A DNA stretch of 64,000 nucleotides from Patescibacteria group bacterium UBA2773 (GCA_002352465.1 DEIN01000003.1:24933-88932); one strand, 5' to 3'. Positions 12,370-21,441 are shown, numbered from the stretch's first letter. The notes: generated by a model from the letters alone, not told the origin. Numbers and translations: made by a program.

Positions 12370-13554
12370 GTGATTAGAAGAAATATTCTAAAAAATAAAA
12401 ATTCCGTAAAACAAAATATGAAATTAAAAAAGGAGTATTATTGCGTCATTGATGAAAATAATAAACCTGACTATCGACGATTGTTTGAATGCAAAAACGA
12501 TGCTCAAAAATGGATTAGAAAGATAAAAAATTCCACTCAAGGTGAAACGGCTTTATTCGGTAAAAATAAAAAAGATTATTTTGTGGATGGCTTAAAAAAA
12601 GATTTTGTGAATCCTTACAAGAAACTTCACCTCAAAAAAGGTTGTTGGTCAGCCCTGAAGGTCAAAAAATTGGTTATGATGGACAATTTTCAACCCGAAA
12701 AATTCTTTGAAAAAATTGTTCCAGATCGAAATAATAAGTTAATTTTCGATAAACAGGAAGCCTCTGAAATTGAATTTGCCATCAAAAAACCCGAGATAAA
12801 ATCCCCTCAAATTCTTAAAGATTTTCTTAATATTAAAAATTTTGACTGGGAAAGCACCTTTATTAGAAACAAATCTTTTGCCGTAGCAACTTCATTTTTG
12901 TTTTTGTTTACTATGAGTTTTTCATTTTTTATTCAAAAAGATGTTAACGAAAAAATAGTCTATGAATTATCAAAAGCTCAAAATGAAACCATCCAACAAA
13001 CCACTCAGACCCAAACTAAAGTTTTAGGTAAAATCACTGAACACGAATCAGAAGAGTCAGAAGAAGCACTTGATCTTTTTGTGATGGATACTCTGAAACA
13101 ATTCGAAAAAGTTAAACAGGAAGATTTGGAAGTAGAAATCAATAAAATTGTTGAAGGTAGCCCAATGAAGAAAATGACTCCTTTACTTGCTCAATTGGAC
13201 AACCGAGTAGCCGCTTTTATGGTGGCGATTGCCAAGAAAGAAAGTAACCTCGGTCGAAGAGTTCCTGTATTACACGGTGAAGATTGCTTTAACTATTGGG
13301 GCTACCGAGGAATTCGAGAAAAAATGGGAAGCGGTGGACATACTTGTTTCGACAGTCCTAAAGATGCCGTTGAAACGGTTTCCAAACGAATTAGCGAATT
13401 AGTCAAAGCCGATATTGATACTCCCCAAGAAATGGTAATTTGGAAATGTGGTTCTAGTTGCGCTGGACATTCTGACTACAGCGTTGAAAAATGGATTAGT
13501 GACGTTGAAATGTATTACGAAAAATTTGATAATATTGATAATTCCAATGCCTAG
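12370..13554 (+). CDS. membrane-anchored protein with C-terminal GH73-like (N-acetylglucosaminidase/FlgJ-like) peptidoglycan-hydrolase-like domain
   Basis: only plus-strand gene; cytoplasmic K-rich N-domain, one TM (SFAVATSFLFLFTMSFSFFI), then AIAKKESNLG...NYWGYRG...FDSPKDAVETVSKRI resembling GH73 motifs ESGWG / NNLFGIK / F.AY.S; extra Cys pairs. Confidence 0.55.
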   Translation: MIRRNILKNKNSVKQNMKLKKEYYCVIDENNKPDYRRLFECKNDAQKWIRKIKNSTQGETALFGKNKKDYFVDGLKKDFVNPYKKLHLKKGCWSALKVKKLVMMDNFQPEKFFEKIVPDRNNKLIFDKQEASEIEFAIKKPEIKSPQILKDFLNIKNFDWESTFIRNKSFAVATSFLFLFTMSFSFFIQKDVNEKIVYELSKAQNETIQQTTQTQTKVLGKITEHESEESEEALDLFVMDTLKQFEKVKQEDLEVEINKIVEGSPMKKMTPLLAQLDNRVAAFMVAIAKKESNLGRRVPVLHGEDCFNYWGYRGIREKMGSGGHTCFDSPKDAVETVSKRISELVKADIDTPQEMVIWKCGSSCAGHSDYSVEKWISDVEMYYEKFDNIDNSNA

Positions 13555-13654: not shown

Positions 13655-14533
13655 TTAAATATAATACAAGGCACAAACACCCAAGACATTCGTTTCTTCT
13701 TTAAGCTCTGAAATTGACCATTCCGGAAAAATTTTTTTATGAAAAATATCTTTCCTAGCAAATTTCATTACTTTTTCTATGTAGTCTCTTTGACTAGAAA
13801 TACCACCCCCAAAAACAATCTTTTCTGGATTGAATATCTCAATCAAACTGATAATTCCCTGCTCTAAATATTCTTGAGATTTAACAATAATTTCAGTAGC
13901 AATTTTATCACCAGTTCGACTCAACTCAAATATTATTTTGGTCTCTTTGATTTTTCCAGTTTTTTCTAAATACATTTTTTCGATGCCTTTTCCAGATGAA
14001 ATTTCACACCATTTCTTCCATTGATTGTCAATAAACATTTTGATATAACTTAACTCAACAGCTGATTCGCTCCTGCCTTCAAAAAGTTGCCCGTTTGAAT
14101 CAATAAAACCGCCTCCAATTCTAGTCCCCAACGTTAAAGTCAACAATCCCTGTTTGGACTCATTATTATTAAAATAATATTCACCCAAAACAAAAGATTT
14201 TCCGTCATTTTTGATTACCACCTGAAAACCAGCTTTTTTTAAAAAAATGAAACTAAATTCTTCAGTTCCATAAGCTTTTTTGGCATTAGAAACTTTCAAA
14301 TTACGACTATCAACTAAACTAGGACAAGACACTGCTATTTTGTTAGTTTTAAATTTTTCTTTATTTTTTTGACAATAATCAATTGTAATTTGTTTAATTT
14401 CCTCAGCGTTAATTGGATTTTTAATTGTTTTTGAATCTAAAAATTCAAATTTCCTACGACCAAAATCAACCTCCACCACACCTTGAAAGATTTTAGTGCC
14501 TCCTATGTCAAAACAAATAAATTTTTCAGTCAT
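13655..14533 (-). CDS. ROK family sugar kinase (glucokinase/NagK-like)
   Basis: N-terminal FDIGGTKI ATPase motif, actin-like fold, C-terminal FGGGIS. Confidence 0.75.
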   Translation of the reverse strand: MTEKFICFDIGGTKIFQGVVEVDFGRRKFEFLDSKTIKNPINAEEIKQITIDYCQKNKEKFKTNKIAVSCPSLVDSRNLKVSNAKKAYGTEEFSFIFLKKAGFQVVIKNDGKSFVLGEYYFNNNESKQGLLTLTLGTRIGGGFIDSNGQLFEGRSESAVELSYIKMFIDNQWKKWCEISSGKGIEKMYLEKTGKIKETKIIFELSRTGDKIATEIIVKSQEYLEQGIISLIEIFNPEKIVFGGGISSQRDYIEKVMKFARKDIFHKKIFPEWSISELKEETNVLGVCALYYI

Positions 14534-14573
14534 TTGTCAATATTAAGTATTAATTATTAAGTATACCTTATAG

Positions 14574-14686
14574 GCTTTATGAACTTTGTAAACTTTCAAC
14601 TTTATTTACCCTGTTAAATAATTTTAGTAAAACTAAAATTAGACCGAATCTATTTAACAAAGTAAACTTTCTGACTAAAATATATT
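14574..14686. repeat. about 110-bp direct repeat, copy 1 (degraded palindrome), 3' of rseP
   Basis: near-identical to 15987..16093; contains AACTTT triplet and CCCTGTTAAATA...TATTTAACAaaG imperfect inverted repeat. Confidence 0.7.
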
Positions 14687-15880
14687 TTTTATTTTATCAA
14701 TTACTTCAAAATTAGTAAAATCTTTAATCGTAACGAACACCATTAATCCAATCAACAAAAAGAAACCGATCGCATTAGCCATTCCTTCAATTTTTTGATT
14801 TAAAGGCGAACCTTTAATTTTTTCAATTAACAAAAAGAAAATTCGCCCACCATCCAAAGCTGGAAATGGCAACAAATTTATCACGCCCAAATTGACTGAA
14901 AGCAAAGCAACAAATTGCAAGACATAAGCCAATCCTAATTGTGTCATTTTCCCAGTCATAATAGCAATTCCCACTGGACCAGCCACCTCCGCTGAAATTT
15001 TTTCAACCGTGAAAATTTTAACAATCATATCAATCAAAAACATTATAATTGTGGTTATCATCGAAAAAGTGGCCTTGACCGCCAACCAAGTTGCTTCAAA
15101 AAATCCGTATTTAACAAAACTAGTTCGAACTAGTTGGACACCCAATAAACCTTGGCCTTCAGGGGCAACTTCCCGAATAGTCGTTTTTAGAGTCGTTATC
15201 TCCCGCTCCTCTAAAGTCGAACCTTTGACCACTCCAATCAAAACTTCTCGTCCTTTGTTTTCTTTAATTACTTCTTGAAAACCAACAATAGTATTAATTC
15301 TAATCGTTTTTTCGGAAGTCATCACTGAAACAATTTCGTCCCCCATTTCCAATCCCATTTCCTGAGCTGGAGTTCCCATCGACACTTGAGCAATTTGAAC
15401 CTTAGTATTCGCCTTTTTATTTTCATCAGAGATTGATTCTGGCAACCCTATTTGGAAAGCCACTGAAAACAAAATAATCGCCAAAATAAAGTTCATAGCT
15501 ACTCCGGCAAAAAGAATCTTAAACCTGACCCAAATAGATTGATTGGCAAAACTTCTTTTATCTTTTTTCCCATTTTCGTCTTCCCCGTCCTCTCCTTTAA
15601 TTTTAACAAAGCCTCCTAATGGAATCAGATTTAAAGAATAAATAGTTTCATCTTGATTTTTTTCAATTTCTTCTATCGATTTGTTGCCGATTATCCATTG
15701 TCTTTTACCTTGTTTATCTTTATACGTTCCAACCAAGCGAGGAGGAAAACCAAACCCAAACTCATCCGACGGTACCCCATTTCGCTTCGCCACTAAAAAA
15801 TGACCCAATTCATGAACTAGTACCAACAAACCAAGAATTAACATAAAAACTATAAAAGTTGTCATAAAAAAAATATTCAA
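14675..15880 (-). CDS. rseP: RIP metalloprotease RseP (site-2 protease, M50 family) with PDZ domain
   Basis: HELGHFLVA zinc motif, PDZ region, PALDGGR motif. Confidence 0.85.
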   Translation of the reverse strand: MNIFFMTTFIVFMLILGLLVLVHELGHFLVAKRNGVPSDEFGFGFPPRLVGTYKDKQGKRQWIIGNKSIEEIEKNQDETIYSLNLIPLGGFVKIKGEDGEDENGKKDKRSFANQSIWVRFKILFAGVAMNFILAIILFSVAFQIGLPESISDENKKANTKVQIAQVSMGTPAQEMGLEMGDEIVSVMTSEKTIRINTIVGFQEVIKENKGREVLIGVVKGSTLEEREITTLKTTIREVAPEGQGLLGVQLVRTSFVKYGFFEATWLAVKATFSMITTIIMFLIDMIVKIFTVEKISAEVAGPVGIAIMTGKMTQLGLAYVLQFVALLSVNLGVINLLPFPALDGGRIFFLLIEKIKGSPLNQKIEGMANAIGFFLLIGLMVFVTIKDFTNFEVIDKIKNIF

Positions 15881-15986
15881 TAATCAATGCCCAACGTTCA
15901 TTCAATAAATCAATATTCTGATATTAAAGTGGATGGATATTGAAAATTAAGTATCAGTTATTTATTAAAAATCTCAATTTTCAAAA

Positions 15987-16093
15987 TTTATAAACTTTAT
16001 AAACTTTCAACTTTATTTACCCTGTTAAATAATTTTAGTAAAACTAAAATTAGACCGAATCTATTTAACAGGGTGAACTTTCTGACTCATTTA
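15987..16093. repeat. about 110-bp direct repeat, copy 2 (perfect 12-bp inverted repeat CCCTGTTAAATA / TATTTAACAGGG 30 nt apart), between frr and rseP
   Basis: see copy 1; ends exactly at the frr stop codon. Confidence 0.7.
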
Positions 16094-16648
16094 TATTTGC
16101 ATCAAATCCTGCTTCTTTTTTGCCTCAATCTCATCAAGTTTTTTATTATATTCATCAACTATTTTTTGCAAATCATCCTTAGCTTTAAATTTTTCATCCT
16201 CAGAAATTTCTCCTTCTCGTTCATTTTTTTGAATTCCGCTCCAAAAATCTTCCCGATGCCTTCTCATTCTAATTTTCATTTCTTCCGTTTTTTTTCCAAG
16301 CTGTTTTACTAAATCCAACCGTCGCTCCTCAGTCATCAGAGGAATAACAATTCGAATTACGTTTCCATCGTCACTAGGATTTAAGCCTAAATCCGACTTA
16401 CTAATCGCTTTTTGAATTTCTTTAATTTGGACCTTATTCCAAGGCGAAATCTCGATAGTTTTGGCATCCAGAACACTAACATTGGCCATATGGACCAAAG
16501 GAGTTCGAGTTCCAAAATATTCAACCTGAATGCCTTCAACCAGCTCAGTACTAGCTCGTCCAGTTTTCATTTTCTTTAAATCATTTTGATATTGCTTAAC
16601 TACTTCTTCAAAATTAAGCTTTAGATTATCAATATTTTCAATATTCAT
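16091..16648 (-). CDS. frr: ribosome recycling factor
   Basis: 185 aa, collinear with RRF (VEYFGTRTPL..., IRIVIPLMTEERR). Confidence 0.9.
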   Translation of the reverse strand: MNIENIDNLKLNFEEVVKQYQNDLKKMKTGRASTELVEGIQVEYFGTRTPLVHMANVSVLDAKTIEISPWNKVQIKEIQKAISKSDLGLNPSDDGNVIRIVIPLMTEERRLDLVKQLGKKTEEMKIRMRRHREDFWSGIQKNEREGEISEDEKFKAKDDLQKIVDEYNKKLDEIEAKKKQDLMQI

Positions 16649-16663
16649 AATTTTCTTTATTAA

Positions 16664-17707
16664 TTAGAATGGTGTTATTTGAAACCCACTATTTCTATTA
16701 TTAGTACCGAGATAAATTAATTGGGTATTGTGAGGATTGATTTTTATTATTTCGATTGAAGCTCCTATTTCGAATTGAACTGGAATCCAAGTTTCACCTT
16801 CGTTATTAGATTTATAAAAAGTCTTTCCTGAAGTATAATAAATTTCTCGAGGATTATTAGGGTTAATGGCTAAGCCACGAGATACGAGCTCTTTTGATTT
16901 GACTAAGGTATTTAAGATCTCCCAATTGGCACCACGATTGTTGCTCCTTTGCAATCCAGCTTTTGAACTAACATAGAGAGACCCTTCTCGACTAGGATGA
17001 ACTGCCACATTATAAATATAGCCTCCTTTAATTATAGCTTCAAATTCGATTCCTTGATTTTGAGACATCAATAAACCATTTTTGGTCGTCGCTAAATAAA
17101 TAAAATTAGGATTAATTTTGTCCAATTCAATACTACGAATCAAACTTTGAGCCCAATATAGAGTCTTCCAAGTTGCACCACCGTCTTCTGACTTAAACAA
17201 ACCACCCTTAGAATTAGCGATATATATTATTTCAGGATTATTATTATGAACAGCAATCGAAGTTAAATAAGAAGTTTCATCTTTTTCAGTATAAATTTCG
17301 TTCCAAGATTCTCCATTGTTGTCTGATTTAAATAATTTTCCTCGTCCATTTTTTTTAGCTGCCATATAAATAGTTTGAGTATCAGAAATAAGTTCAATAT
17401 CGGTAATGTTTTGAAAATTATTGATATCAGACAACCAAGTTGCACCTTCGTCTATCGATTTGAACAAACCTGCTCCTTTAGTTCCCACAAAAATTTCTTT
17501 ATCATTGGAAGGATTAATTTCTAAAGCTAAAATATTTTTTCCATTTAACACTGACCCCTCTTCCTTGTCACTTTGCTTAAAATTCGTTCCTCCATCAATT
17601 GATTTAAAAAAACCTCCATCTTGACTAACTGTCGTACAACCCGAAAAAAAATAAATTACCCCAACCAAACAACCAATTTTAAAAATATTTTTTGTTTTTA
17701 TTCTCAT
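16664..17707 (-). CDS. BNR/Asp-box repeat beta-propeller protein, secreted/lipoprotein-like
   Basis: signal peptide with Cys (FFSGCTT); six S-x-D-x-G-x-T-W/F Asp-box repeats (SIDGGTNF, SIDEGATW, SDNNGESW, SEDGGATW, SNNRGANW, SNNEGETW). Confidence 0.65.
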   Translation of the reverse strand: MRIKTKNIFKIGCLVGVIYFFSGCTTVSQDGGFFKSIDGGTNFKQSDKEEGSVLNGKNILALEINPSNDKEIFVGTKGAGLFKSIDEGATWLSDINNFQNITDIELISDTQTIYMAAKKNGRGKLFKSDNNGESWNEIYTEKDETSYLTSIAVHNNNPEIIYIANSKGGLFKSEDGGATWKTLYWAQSLIRSIELDKINPNFIYLATTKNGLLMSQNQGIEFEAIIKGGYIYNVAVHPSREGSLYVSSKAGLQRSNNRGANWEILNTLVKSKELVSRGLAINPNNPREIYYTSGKTFYKSNNEGETWIPVQFEIGASIEIIKINPHNTQLIYLGTNNRNSGFQITPF

Positions 17708-17713
17708 AATTAT

Positions 17714-19009
17714 TTACTTTAAAATTACTTTTAAATTCATATTTTCATTATTCCGAATTAACCGAACCTCAACTTCATCACCAGTCTGATGTTCGGCAAT
17801 TAATTTTGATAAAGGGTTCTTTAACTCAACTATTTTTCCTCCAACCGCTATAATAATATCTCCGATTTTAATTCCAGCTTCATCAGCAGCTGAATCCTTA
17901 ATAACTGCTAATCCTTGTTGTCCAGAGAATGAATAAACTAAAGCACCTCGATTAACATTTAAATTATTCAATAAAGCAATCTCCTTGTTAATCGAAAGAT
18001 AATAAACTCCAAATGAAGAATTTAAAATTTCCTTTTTTTCTAGAACTTTATTAATCGTCAATTTTAAATCATTGATTGGAATAACAAACCCGACTTTTTC
18101 TCCATCTTTTTCTATCTGATTTACAATCCCAATTATATTTCCATTATAATCTAAAACTGGTCCCCCAACATTTCTATCTTCAATTCTAGCATCTAATAAA
18201 ATAGCGCCTTCCAATTTTTCTGAAGATGACAACTCAGAATTAAGCAAAGTAAAAGTATAATCTATTTCTTTTATTAATCCAGAAGAATAAGAATTTTGAT
18301 ATTCACCGCTAGCATTGCCACAAAGCACCACCTTTTCACCAATTTCAATATTGCTAGAATCGCCCAAACTAGGAACAGGCAAATCATTTTTAGCAACTTT
18401 ATAAAAAACTAAATTACGAAAATTATCGACAGCCAAAATTTCTGCTTCAAATTCATTATTATTTCCAGCCAATATTTTAAATTTCCAGGTACTCTTCTCT
18501 CCGCTTTCCAAGATTTTATCACTTTCAATTATTCCCCTTGTAGTATTGTCTAGAACACTGACAATTAAACCGTCGCTAGTTAAAATAAAACCGGTTTTAA
18601 TATTTTTTTGAATATCTTGACTAGATTTAATTTTATTAATTGATTTCAATTCATCATTATTTGCTTCTTCGAAACTAATAATGCTCACTACTGCTGGAGA
18701 AATTTTTTCTGCAATGTTGGCCACTGAAAAATCTTCCTTCACGATAATTTCTTTAGTTTGATTAACAATAGTCACTTTTTCATTAGCCTTTTGAACTAAA
18801 CGACATTTTTCTAAAGCAGGGATAGTTGAAATCCAAGGAACCACAAAACGTTCTCCGACAACACCAGCAATTCCTCCAATAATAAAAACTAGCAAAATCC
18901 AAATTGTTAACTTAAAGATCTTTTTTAAATTGCTATCAACCATAAACGTATTTAATTGTTTAAAAATGTAAAAAAAATAATTGAAAATAATTCCGTCATA
19001 TCTTAGCAA
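17714..19009 (-). CDS. HtrA/DegP-like trypsin-fold plus PDZ protein with all three catalytic residues substituted (predicted pseudo-protease)
   Basis: N-terminal TM; collinear with HtrA (SPAVVSI, GFILTSDGLIVS, GEKVVLCGN, VGFVIPIN, PDZ GIKIGDIIIAVGG), but the GNSGGP position reads RNVGGP (Ser to Val), the His-box position has no His, and the Asp position is Asn. Confidence 0.65.
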   Translation of the reverse strand: MLRYDGIIFNYFFYIFKQLNTFMVDSNLKKIFKLTIWILLVFIIGGIAGVVGERFVVPWISTIPALEKCRLVQKANEKVTIVNQTKEIIVKEDFSVANIAEKISPAVVSIISFEEANNDELKSINKIKSSQDIQKNIKTGFILTSDGLIVSVLDNTTRGIIESDKILESGEKSTWKFKILAGNNNEFEAEILAVDNFRNLVFYKVAKNDLPVPSLGDSSNIEIGEKVVLCGNASGEYQNSYSSGLIKEIDYTFTLLNSELSSSEKLEGAILLDARIEDRNVGGPVLDYNGNIIGIVNQIEKDGEKVGFVIPINDLKLTINKVLEKKEILNSSFGVYYLSINKEIALLNNLNVNRGALVYSFSGQQGLAVIKDSAADEAGIKIGDIIIAVGGKIVELKNPLSKLIAEHQTGDEVEVRLIRNNENMNLKVILK

Positions 19010-19784
19010 CTAAAGCCCACTGTGCAGTTAATAAAATTCCAAATAATAAAACTGAGCCAATTACCCAATTAACTATTATTTTTTTTCTTGTCAATTCGCC
19101 TCTTAAATAAAGACGAATCACATCCCAGAACTCATAAAAAATTATAAGGGCAGAACCGCCCAATGTCAAATAGCCAAAAGGCAAAAAAATAATTCCCCAA
19201 AAAAATTGAGACATTATTAAGGCTAAAATTAGATCTAAAAAGATAATCCCAACCAACCCAATTGATTCCTTTTTCTCCTTGCTTTTTCTTAAACGATCTT
19301 CTCGATCTTTAGCATTAGTGCAAAAAGAAGGCAAACTAATCAAAAATATCGTTACAACAAAAATCACCATAATCCAATATTTAACTTGAAAATTTAGATA
19401 AAAACCCAACGCTGCCGTAAACCACAAAAAAGCAGTTGATAATGTCGCCAAATTAACCATTCCTAGTGCAGTTTGATCACTGTTATAGAATCGCAATCGA
19501 TAGCCTCCCAATAAAGTTAAATAATAAATTCCAGTCGCTAAAAAAATAAAAACTTGTTTTTCGACCGAATGATCAACCAAAAATAATAATGCCAAAGCCC
19601 CCAGGCTAAGAAAAAATGGCAAAGCGATAAAACGAGGTTTCCTGGTCAAAGGCCAAACAATTATAATTGTTAAAATAATCAATAACCAAGCCACCGTTTT
19701 AACCCAATTTTCTTTCAACGCCACCGCCTCCAAAGACAATAAAAAGAAAATTGAATAAATTAATGGTTGAAGTTTAAAAAACAT
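18996..19784 (-). CDS. hypothetical polytopic membrane protein
   Basis: 262 aa, about 8 TM helices, overlaps the upstream gene by 14 bp. Confidence 0.5.
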   Translation of the reverse strand: MFFKLQPLIYSIFFLLSLEAVALKENWVKTVAWLLIILTIIIVWPLTRKPRFIALPFFLSLGALALLFLVDHSVEKQVFIFLATGIYYLTLLGGYRLRFYNSDQTALGMVNLATLSTAFLWFTAALGFYLNFQVKYWIMVIFVVTIFLISLPSFCTNAKDREDRLRKSKEKKESIGLVGIIFLDLILALIMSQFFWGIIFLPFGYLTLGGSALIIFYEFWDVIRLYLRGELTRKKIIVNWVIGSVLLFGILLTAQWALVAKI

Positions 19785-19847
19785 TTTAAATATTTATTTA
19801 CAGATTTATTTTAACACGAGTTCTGAACTAACACTATGGGTTATATC

Positions 19848-19878
19848 AACCAAACAAAAATAGCTTCCGAAAAGCTAT
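19848..19878 (-). terminator. intrinsic terminator after secY (end of ribosomal operon)
   Basis: ATAGCTT-CCGAA-AAGCTAT hairpin followed on the minus strand by TTTTTGTTTGG. Confidence 0.45.
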
Positions 19879-20034
19879 TGCTAAAAAATAATAATCAAAA
19901 TTTTTAATATAATTCGAATATCAAATGAAATATACCAAACCAAAGTATTAAACAAGTAGTAAAAATAAAAATTGGATTTAAATTAAAGTCTAAAACAAAT
20001 AAAGGTTAAACACTTCATGCCATATTAGAATTAA

Positions 20035-20120
20035 AGAATTTAAGTATGATTTGAGGAAGATTTGAGTATCGAATGAGACGCACTGAAAAGTGCGTTGAAT
20101 GAGAAACGGAAAATCTAACA
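20035..20120 (+). repeat. GC-enriched structured intergenic repeat, copy E (family with 28023..28176, 32986..33095, 43005..43090, 58083..58256, 61070..61251)
   Basis: shares GATTTGAG x2 ... CGAATGAGACGCAC and CGGAAAATCTAACAAAAAAGCA with the other copies; internal hairpin GACGCAC-TGAAAA-GTGCGTT. Confidence 0.5.
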
Positions 20121-20145
20121 AAAAAGCATACTAAATTATTTGATT

Positions 20146-21441
20146 CTAAACATCCAACTTGTCGTAGTCTCTCATTACTAATTGTCCCTCAACCTGCTTC
20201 ATTGTCTCCATTACCACCGAAACCACAATCAAAATTCCTGTCCCACCAACTGTAATAGTTTGAATTCCAGTCAAACCTTGAATAATAAAAGGTAAAACAG
20301 CCACTGCTCCCAAAAACAAAGCTCCCGTTAAAGTAATTCTATTAACAATAAAGTTAAGATATTCCATTGTTGGTCGACCCGGTCTAATCCCAGAAATAAA
20401 TCCCCCTTGTCGCTGAAGATTCTCAGCAACTTTCTCTGGATTAAAGGTGACCGCAGTATAAAAATAAGTAAAAGCCACTACCAGCAAAAAATAAGCACTC
20501 CCATAGAACCATTGATTAGCCATCAAATCAGCCACCACTGAAGCATATTTAGCCACCCAATCGACTGAGCTGGTTGACAAAAAATTAGCAATCACACTTG
20601 GAAAAAGCATAATTGACATCGCAAAAATAATTGGAATAACTCCTGCCATATTAACTCGCAACGGCAAGCTTGAACCGCCACCCATTGATTTACCGTTTCT
20701 AGTTTGTCGAGCAAAAGTAATCGGAATATTTCTTTGTCCCTCAGTAATAAATACAATCGCCCCGATAGTCAAAATTGACAAAACTATTAGCCCCACATAA
20801 GACAAAATTTCAGCTGGATTCCAAGTTAAAATTAAATTATTAATCGCCGTTGGCAAAGCTGAAACAATTCCGGCAAAAATCAAAAGAGATACTCCATTCC
20901 CCAATCCCTTTTCAGTAATAATCTCTCCTAACCACATCAAAAATACTGTCCCAGCCGTAATAGTTGAAATTATTAAAATATATTGCAAAATATTTAAGTC
21001 GGCCATCATTCCTTGACTTCTTAGTAAAGAAATCATACTAAAAGATTGCAAAAGCGCTAAAGGCAAAGTCAACCAACGAGTCCAAAGATTAAATTTTTGT
21101 CGACCAGCTTCTCCTTCTTCTTTATATAACTTCTCCATTTTAGGAAAAATCATCGTCGAAAGTTGCATAATAATCGAAGCAGTAATATAAGGACCAACTC
21201 CAAGCATCACGATTGAAACATTTCGCAAACCTCCTCCAGAAAAAACATCCAACATTCCAAGCAGTTGATTGTTATCAAAAAAACTTTTCAAACGAGCAAT
21301 GTCAACTCCAGGAACTGGAATGTTAGCAGCTAACCGAAACACCACTAAAACGCCCAAAATAAACAATATCTTATTGCGAATTTCCTTGATTTGAAATATT
21401 TGTTTGATTTTGTTTGACATAAAGTAAGAAATGCTCAACAC
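20146..21441 (-). CDS. secY: preprotein translocase subunit SecY
   Basis: 431 aa, 10 TM helices, collinear with SecY; immediately downstream of rplO. Confidence 0.95.
   Translation of the reverse strand: MLSISYFMSNKIKQIFQIKEIRNKILFILGVLVVFRLAANIPVPGVDIARLKSFFDNNQLLGMLDVFSGGGLRNVSIVMLGVGPYITASIIMQLSTMIFPKMEKLYKEEGEAGRQKFNLWTRWLTLPLALLQSFSMISLLRSQGMMADLNILQYILIISTITAGTVFLMWLGEIITEKGLGNGVSLLIFAGIVSALPTAINNLILTWNPAEILSYVGLIVLSILTIGAIVFITEGQRNIPITFARQTRNGKSMGGGSSLPLRVNMAGVIPIIFAMSIMLFPSVIANFLSTSSVDWVAKYASVVADLMANQWFYGSAYFLLVVAFTYFYTAVTFNPEKVAENLQRQGGFISGIRPGRPTMEYLNFIVNRITLTGALFLGAVAVLPFIIQGLTGIQTITVGGTGILIVVSVVMETMKQVEGQLVMRDYDKLDV

Follow-up and report, generated by a model that had tools for sequence, protein, structure and literature searches.

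The window analysed here is a 64,000-nucleotide stretch of DNA from Patescibacteria group bacterium UBA2773 (GCA_002352465.1 DEIN01000003.1:24933-88932), which is AT-rich (~31% GC), carries nearly all of its genes on the minus strand, and includes a ribosomal-protein/secY operon. Within it lies a pair of adjacent genes, the first of which codes for a polytopic membrane protein of the DUF5656 family and the second for an HtrA/DegP-like protein in which all three positions of the catalytic triad have been replaced; the second gene and its relatives are the subject of this analysis, and the features of the locus are listed in Table 1. The open reading frame (ORF) occupies positions 17714..19009 (-) exactly, and its maximal reading gives 431 amino acids (aa) from a TTG codon at 19009, the start adopted in the original prediction for this locus. 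This start is not supported: the TTG codon overlaps the end of the upstream gene, and the N-terminal 22 residues of the 431-aa reading are unmatched in any homolog. Because the identical database protein (P0001, 409 aa) and every homolog begin at the ATG codon at 18943 (MVDSNLKK...), we prefer that start, so that the true gene is probably the shorter one, 17714..18943, and residues are numbered on the 409-aa protein throughout.

Table 1. Features of the triad-less HtrA locus, with positions counted from the first letter of the window.
Feature	Position	Strand	Remarks
DUF5656-family polytopic membrane protein, 262 aa, ~9 helices	18996..19784	-	Immediately upstream of the triad-less HtrA gene
Triad-less HtrA paralog, coding sequence (probable start)	17714..18943	-	409 aa plus stop codon
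N-terminal hydrophobic membrane anchor (predicted), ~aa 5-36	18836..18931	-	Hydropathy; helix 2-38 in the AlphaFold2 model
Family-specific juxtamembrane motif, aa 56-70, KVTIVNQTKEIIVKE	18734..18778	-	Family consensus VTVINKTEQI; T58, I60 and T63 family-specific
Chymotrypsin-fold (Trypsin_2) HtrA-type domain without catalytic triad	18044..18724	-	Pfam, profile alignment, AlphaFold2, Foldseek
His-box equivalent without His, aa 129-134, SVLDNT versus TNNHVV	18542..18559	-	Profile and MAFFT alignments
Asn177 codon at the catalytic Asp position, FRNLVFYK versus SDVAVLKI	18413..18415	-	phmmer, profile and MAFFT alignments
Near-invariant family-specific loop LLNSELSSSEKLEG, aa 233-246	18206..18247	-	In the place of HtrA sensor loop L3
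Val259 codon at the catalytic Ser position, RNVGGP versus GNSGGP	18167..18169	-	phmmer, profile and MAFFT alignments; Gly-Gly-Pro backbone of loop L1 kept
C-terminal PDZ domain, aa ~305-409	17717..18031	-	Keeps the LG(V)YY carboxylate-loop region; family-specific Y314 and S338
BNR/Sortilin-Vps10-type beta-propeller, putative lipoprotein	16664..17707	-	Begins 6 nt downstream of the triad-less HtrA gene
RseP (M50 site-2 protease)	14675-15880		Three genes downstream of the triad-less HtrA gene

The architecture that had been proposed for the protein, an N-terminal transmembrane segment followed by a trypsin-fold domain and a C-terminal PDZ domain, is seen alike in hydropathy, Pfam matches, an AlphaFold2 (AF2) model and Foldseek comparisons, and the HtrA sequence blocks quoted in support of it are all present. 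There is a single strongly hydrophobic segment, at the N-terminus (residues 5-36), with Lys7, Lys8 and Lys11 at its N-terminal edge, and the positive-inside rule would place the N-terminus inside the cell and the C-terminal domains outside. The protease-like domain has the fold of the S1C family, with a Pfam Trypsin_2 match of E=1.6e-14 and 55.3 bits (cut-off 27.6), and the C-terminal domain matches both PDZ_2 (E=2.9e-11, 43.9 bits) and PDZ_6 (30.9 bits) above the cut-off of 27. The AF2 model, which was built from 51 family sequences, has a mean predicted local distance difference test score (pLDDT) of 86.3 and a predicted template modelling score (pTM) of 0.75, and its best Foldseek matches in the PDB are DegP, DegQ, MucD, the Mycobacterium tuberculosis (Mtb) HtrA, Deg8 and DegS (E~4e-26; template modelling (TM) score up to 0.83 on the target). 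The NCBIfam models for HtrA/Do proteins match from end to end but below their cut-offs (SerProtHtrA, 135.1 versus 470; degP_htrA_DO, 125.3 versus 416).

The positions of the triad were fixed in three independent ways: by phmmer against solved HtrA proteins, by alignment of the family profile with solved HtrAs, and by MAFFT alignment with the intact paralogs encoded at the same loci. By all three, V259 stands at the position of the catalytic Ser (RNVGGP) and N177 at that of the catalytic Asp (NLV), in agreement with the original prediction. The His of the TNNHV box maps to the segment S129-V130-L131-D132, with the His column at D132 when aligned by hidden Markov model (HMM) and at V130 or a gap when aligned by MAFFT; the sole His in the whole protein is H385, inside the PDZ domain, and the protease domain is without His as had been claimed. 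The profile alignment thus puts no His, Asp or Ser at the canonical positions, and the His-Asp-Ser triad characteristic of HtrA/DegP (MEROPS S1C) is replaced by V130-D132, N177 and V259. Judged by its sequence the protein is a clear S1C HtrA homolog but a non-canonical one, which we place among the non-peptidase homologs because it fails both the triad test and the score cut-offs of the curated families; it is predicted to be a non-catalytic paralog, that is, a pseudoprotease that would carry out no proteolysis.

The loss of the triad is a property of a whole family. A search of 5.8 billion proteins gave 229 matches, and in all of the best 120 of these (down to 34% identity), which were the ones examined, the Ser is missing from the motif equivalent to GNSGGP. 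Relatives are present in 186 GTDB species genomes, as found by a scan of one genome per species, and 80 of these loci were retrieved with their flanks; the closest matches among database proteins and genomes carry the names Candidatus Moranbacteria, Moraniibacteriota, Parcubacteria or Patescibacteria, which assigns the window to a member of the Moranbacteria. When the family members and the second HtrA genes of the same loci are aligned jointly, His is found at the His column in none of the 202 family members (0/202), the column being variable or gapped, Ser is likewise absent from the Ser column (0/202; mostly Ile, Val or Leu), and Asp is present at the Asp column in 13/202, the others having mostly Asn; in the second HtrA genes, His, Asp and Ser are all present in 60/60. 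The loss is thus common to the orthologs, and the most divergent members are triad-less as well (FIGAPA, FIGGAT), with many orthologs having no His anywhere. Because losses are present in every one of the 202 orthologs they are far beyond chance. The family HMM separates the two groups, with triad-less ORFs that are uncut by a contig end scoring at least 308 bits and the active paralogs at most 257 bits. The triad-less HtrA is a lineage-wide family of the Moranbacteria, members of the Candidate Phyla Radiation (CPR), and not a one-off. We found no account of such a family in the searchable literature on HtrA in Patescibacteria or on inactive HtrA homologs, and it appears to be undescribed; for many of its proteins the name given by the source is 'serine protease Do', 'S1C family serine protease' or the like, which is probably wrong in the enzymatic sense.

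Selection on the gene was examined through the ratio of nonsynonymous to synonymous substitution rates (dN/dS), calculated by the Nei-Gojobori method. Among 41 ortholog pairs the triad-less gene has a median dN/dS of 0.105 (range 0.046-0.154), and in the 20 genome pairs that could be compared for both paralogs the values are 0.101 for the triad-less gene versus 0.104 for the active one. Mean pairwise identity across 60 genomes is 0.46 for the triad-less HtrA, 0.56 for the active HtrA and 0.47 for the DUF5656 neighbour. The gene is under strong purifying selection, on a par with that on its active paralog, and this equality, together with the loss of the triad across the family, bears out the earlier proposal that the protein has been retained rather than left to decay.

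What has been retained is in part common to both paralogs and in part peculiar to the triad-less family. Kept in both paralogs are the backbone formed by Gly-Gly-Pro in loop L1, the DG in the strand of the His box, the Asp with which D..DLA begins, the core of the PDZ domain and the Gly of its carboxylate loop, and core residues in the N-terminal part of the protease domain. The positions that are at least 90% conserved solely in the triad-less family lie in the juxtamembrane motif, in the loop that takes the place of L3, and in the PDZ domain. The juxtamembrane motif coincides with the sole stretch of the AF2 model that has pLDDT <50 (residues 56-71); high conservation combined with low AF2 confidence is what one typically sees in segments whose folding requires a partner, and the motif is a candidate partner-binding segment which may become ordered only on a partner such as DUF5656. 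The loop at residues 233-246, with the family pattern LLNSELSSSEKxEG, has S241, E245 and G246 among its family-only positions, and its place in the alignment suggests that it is the positional equivalent of the HtrA loop L3. In the PDZ domain, the positions of Y314 and S338 are Arg in 97% and 95%, respectively, of the active paralogs.

The polytopic membrane protein encoded immediately upstream has no Pfam match of its own. It is 56% identical (E=3e-103) to its counterpart in the related locus L001 and 29% identical (E=2e-33) to that in L003, and the upstream genes of both relatives match DUF5656/PF18900, that of L003 with a score of 29.1 (cut-off 23.3); because the window's protein is homologous to members that pass the Pfam threshold, we assign it to DUF5656 (PF18900). 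The linkage between the two genes is close to absolute in both directions. In 81/82 non-redundant loci the gene that directly precedes the triad-less HtrA, on the same strand, codes for a DUF5656 homolog, which in 78 loci occupies position -1; the exception has only 60 nt of upstream sequence. When DUF5656 was used as bait, 25 metagenome loci were recovered, and in all of those with at least 300 nt of downstream sequence (21/21) the triad-less HtrA follows directly. DUF5656 is therefore the obligate genetic partner of the triad-less HtrA, and that part of the original prediction which placed the gene in an envelope cluster with a polytopic membrane protein holds throughout the family.

DUF5656 is itself a small and lineage-restricted family, with 257 matches at E<=1e-3 among 1.84 billion representatives, and a literature search on it gave no papers. 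Its AF2 model is confident (pLDDT 87.5, pTM 0.85), with ~9 helices, and a Foldseek comparison of the model with the PDB turned up nothing significant (best E=1.4, TM <=0.33). There are strongly conserved polar motifs in the family (GGYRLRFYxxDQTAQGMVNLAT, WPFGYLTLG and FWDxIR). We note that a perfect 12/12 sigma-70 consensus (TTGACA, 17 nt, TATAAT) is present at 19141-19169 (-), in the 3' part of the DUF5656 ORF and ~200 nt upstream of the start of the triad-less HtrA gene, and this site could be an internal promoter. A promoter and terminator scan of positions 14400-20300 gave results at chance level, with 27 promoter-like sites versus 24.7 expected, and the operon is not delimited by it.

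The linkage to catalytically intact HtrA genes is extensive but looser. An intact HtrA lies upstream on the same strand in 60/82 loci, adjoining the DUF5656 gene in 19 of them and standing 3.2-4.9 kb upstream in 41, mostly with one intervening ClpB gene, and a PrsA/SurA-like rotamase gene precedes HtrA in 57 loci. The ancestral order of the locus is PrsA-like rotamase, active HtrA, (ClpB), DUF5656, dead HtrA, which constitutes a proteostasis cluster. In the clade to which the window belongs the pair of DUF5656 and dead HtrA has moved, and is found after secY in the window and after mreB in L001, a relative from the same clade. L001 also has an intact HtrA (P0169; TNRHVV, LDMAFLKV, GNSGGP), ~800 kb away on the same 1.3-Mb contig and within a rotamase-ferredoxin (Fer4)-HtrA-ClpB cluster, so that coexistence of the two paralogs extends to the window's clade; the intact HtrAs found in relatives are P0169, P0155 and P0154. 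Since relatives carry the pair after HtrA-ClpB or after mreB, it has been transposed as a unit. In the window the junction (19785-21441 (-)) runs from secY across a 361-nt gap to the pair, which stands in place of adk/map/infA, the usual bacterial genes after secY.

We are highly confident that the triad-less HtrA is a functional pseudoprotease, and we favour, with more reserve, the overall proposal that it serves a DUF5656 complex as a non-catalytic subunit, either a holdase or a sensor, in extracytoplasmic protein quality control; the chaperone, scaffold or regulatory role suggested by the original prediction is of the same kind. According to this proposal, the gene would have arisen in an ancestor of the Moranbacteria by duplication of a canonical membrane-anchored HtrA, one copy of which was then repurposed. 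The single N-terminal helix would anchor the protein in the cytoplasmic membrane with the dead protease domain and the PDZ domain facing outward, such that the protein would be the extracytoplasmic subunit of a two-gene module with DUF5656. Unfolded or newly secreted polypeptides could be bound through the PDZ domain, the remodelled substrate cleft and the L3-type loop without being cut, and the binding event could be relayed to DUF5656, to the active HtrA paralog, or to both. The module would then be part of an extracytoplasmic quality-control set together with the PrsA-like foldase, HtrA and ClpB.

Several points weigh against this proposal. Client binding, chaperone activity, and complexes with DUF5656 or with the active HtrA are, like the topology and the link to quality control, things that we infer, and DUF5656 has neither a known function nor a fold match. 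The changes from Arg to Tyr and Ser in the PDZ domain may have altered its ligand specificity, or even peptide binding itself. Correlations of pairwise identities (0.80 between the pseudoprotease and DUF5656, 0.76 between the pseudoprotease and the active HtrA, and 0.69 between the active HtrA and DUF5656) are too confounded by phylogeny to count as evidence of co-evolution. A scan with the family HMM found no second HtrA in the 64-kb window, and no active HtrA from the window's own genome is among the best 120 homologs of an active paralog.

A different emphasis, to which we give perhaps a quarter of our credence, is that the protein serves chiefly to regulate the active HtrA as one of its subunits, either forming mixed trimers or oligomers with it or activating it indirectly in the manner of MamO, and so tuning its proteolysis, with DUF5656 serving as anchor or cofactor. 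An origin by duplication, the ancestral adjacency to an intact HtrA (60/82 loci), the presence of both paralogs on one contig even where they are unlinked, the N-terminal core residues that their protease domains share, and the precedent of MamO and MamE (PMC4794232) are all what such a regulator would lead us to expect. The genetic tie is nevertheless much looser to the active HtrA, where it extends to 73% of loci and has been lost from the window's clade, than to DUF5656 (~100%), and MamE and MamO were not found to interact physically in the MamO study itself (PMC4794232). At the other extreme, the protein could be a duplicate in decay, a functionless pseudogene in progress, as its somewhat faster evolution relative to the active paralog (mean pairwise identity 0.46 versus 0.56) might suggest; but the reading frame is intact in >200 sequences and in 186 species genomes, dN/dS is ~0.1 and the same as that of the active paralog, the synteny is strict and new invariant motifs have been gained. 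We regard the pseudogene explanation as refuted by its dN/dS, phylogenetic breadth and new motifs, and virtually certain to be wrong.

Two further explanations seem to us improbable. It could still be a hydrolase with a non-canonical catalytic set, such as a Ser241-Lys204 dyad, given that S241 and K204 are invariant and family-specific and that E242 and E245 are nearly invariant. However, nearly all members have a hydrophobic residue (I, V or L) at the canonical nucleophile position, the His column varies or is gapped, S241 lies by alignment in the peripheral L3-type loop, away from the oxyanion hole, and we know of no precedent in the S1C family. It is just as doubtful that the protein is a DegS-like stress sensor or an adaptor for regulated intramembrane proteolysis by RseP, although it has a PDZ-bearing HtrA scaffold like that of DegS, DegS models match it at 45-59 bits, and an RseP gene lies three genes downstream in the window, an order that recurs in L001. 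The linkage to RseP is confined to ~9/85 loci, all within the window's clade, no site-1 cleavage would be possible without a triad, and the score against the DegS equivalog is far under its cut-off (58.6 versus 423).

Among known systems, our proposal of a holdase or sensor subunit is closest to MamO of magnetotactic bacteria, in which a polytopic TauE-like domain carries a degenerate HtrA domain and which activates its catalytic paralog MamE non-catalytically (PMC4794232). In the view of the authors of that study, it was duplication that left one copy free to give up catalysis (PMC4794232). As in MamO and LimO, an HtrA-derived domain with a degenerate triad and an intact fold seems to have been kept for a non-catalytic role, following duplication and beside a competent paralog (MamE in that case, the upstream HtrA in ours), and in association with a polytopic membrane module, which is the TauE-like domain in MamO and DUF5656 in our family. 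The differences are nonetheless considerable. MamO keeps the His and Asp and has Thr for Ser, whereas all three positions are lost in the Moranbacteria family; MamO is a TauE fusion without a PDZ domain, whereas here the PDZ domain is kept, there is no TauE match, and the membrane partner is the product of a separate gene with a different, unmatched fold. MamO also binds metal through a surface di-His motif, and metal binding of this type was considered for our protein and rejected for want of His, since H385 in the PDZ domain is the only one and many orthologs have none. The NCBIfam MamO model scores 23.6 bits versus a cut-off of 800, and the lineage (CPR Moranbacteria) and biology differ as well. 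By analogy, then, the protein would function most like the MamO-type pseudoproteases while standing outside that group.

The single-PDZ HtrAs of monoderm bacteria, such as Bacillus subtilis HtrA and HtrB and Mtb HtrA, have the same fold and the same arrangement of transmembrane anchor, S1C domain and one PDZ domain, and engineered inactive variants show that this scaffold can act without proteolysis: an inactive mutant of B. subtilis HtrA (S260A) gave less secretion stress and higher enzyme yield, which fits a chaperone-like role (PMC10715036). Those proteins, however, are by nature active proteases with His, Asp and Ser, whereas the family described here is a natural, lineage-wide triad-less paralog with motifs of its own and an obligate DUF5656 partner. 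The DegS/RseP cascade likewise resembles our locus, where the HtrA also has a membrane anchor and a single PDZ domain and where, in the window, a gene for an M50 site-2 protease is close by. It differs in that catalytic competence and a conserved linkage to RseP or an anti-sigma factor characterize DegS-type proteins, whereas the protein described here has no triad, its linkage to RseP is peculiar to the window's clade, and no anti-sigma factor was identified.

To our knowledge, HtrA-derived pseudoenzymes have been known from essentially one studied system, MamO, and the triad-less HtrA family is a second and independent case, which is spread across a whole lineage. Because CPR genomes of ~1 Mb have been stripped of most redundancy and yet keep a non-catalytic paralog that is selected as strongly as the active enzyme, its role is likely to be an important one. 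Its strict tie to an HtrA-derived extracytoplasmic domain, and its looser tie to the PrsA-HtrA-ClpB cluster, provide the first functional handle on DUF5656. While a pseudoenzyme is in itself a known phenomenon, what is added here is lineage-wide conservation in reduced CPR genomes, strict pairing with a membrane protein of novel fold, and embedding among PrsA, HtrA and ClpB, which together make the function of DUF5656 experimentally approachable. A bolder version, which we put forward only tentatively, is that the dead HtrA and DUF5656 form a previously unrecognised, Moranbacteria-specific two-component envelope device, in which the PDZ pseudoprotease would sense, on the outside of the cell, the termini of exported or misfolded proteins and would gate or regulate the membrane protein of novel fold, which could be a channel, a transporter or a signal transducer, so as to control the adjacent HtrA/ClpB/PrsA set; if true, ultra-small CPR bacteria with reduced genomes would possess an envelope-stress pathway of a new kind.

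The genes downstream of the pair in the window are of more local interest. The beta-propeller protein encoded next to the triad-less HtrA gene has a probable lipobox (FFSGC) and matches the NCBIfam 'F510_1955 family glycosylhydrolase' model (4e-33, 114.7 bits, cut-off 175) as well as Ycf48-like models. The BNR lipoprotein, frr, RseP and ROK genes are shared downstream only within the window's clade (~8-10 loci), and BNR, frr and RseP were accordingly rejected as functional partners of the family; the BNR lipoprotein, which the original prediction had included in the envelope cluster, is thus a neighbour in ~10/82 loci only. Further downstream is a 394-aa ORF at 12370-13554 (+) that has no meaningful Pfam match and is the only long plus-strand gene in the region; L001 and L085 have a 378-aa gene without a Pfam match in the equivalent place and on the strand opposite to its neighbours, and the ORF appears to encode a conserved uncharacterised protein.

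The cluster of a PrsA/SurA-like rotamase, a small 4Fe-4S ferredoxin (52-65 aa), an active HtrA and ClpB is recurrent in Moranbacteria (for example L003, 1529-7080, and L087, 3679-9632), and the position of a small ferredoxin gene between those of an extracytoplasmic foldase and a protease is unexpected. Finally, L005, L006, L008, L010 and many other loci come from GTDB/ENA records of metagenome-assembled genomes titled 'uncultured Bdellovibrionales bacterium'; their gene content and nearest relatives are those of Patescibacteria, and the titles are probably mislabelled.

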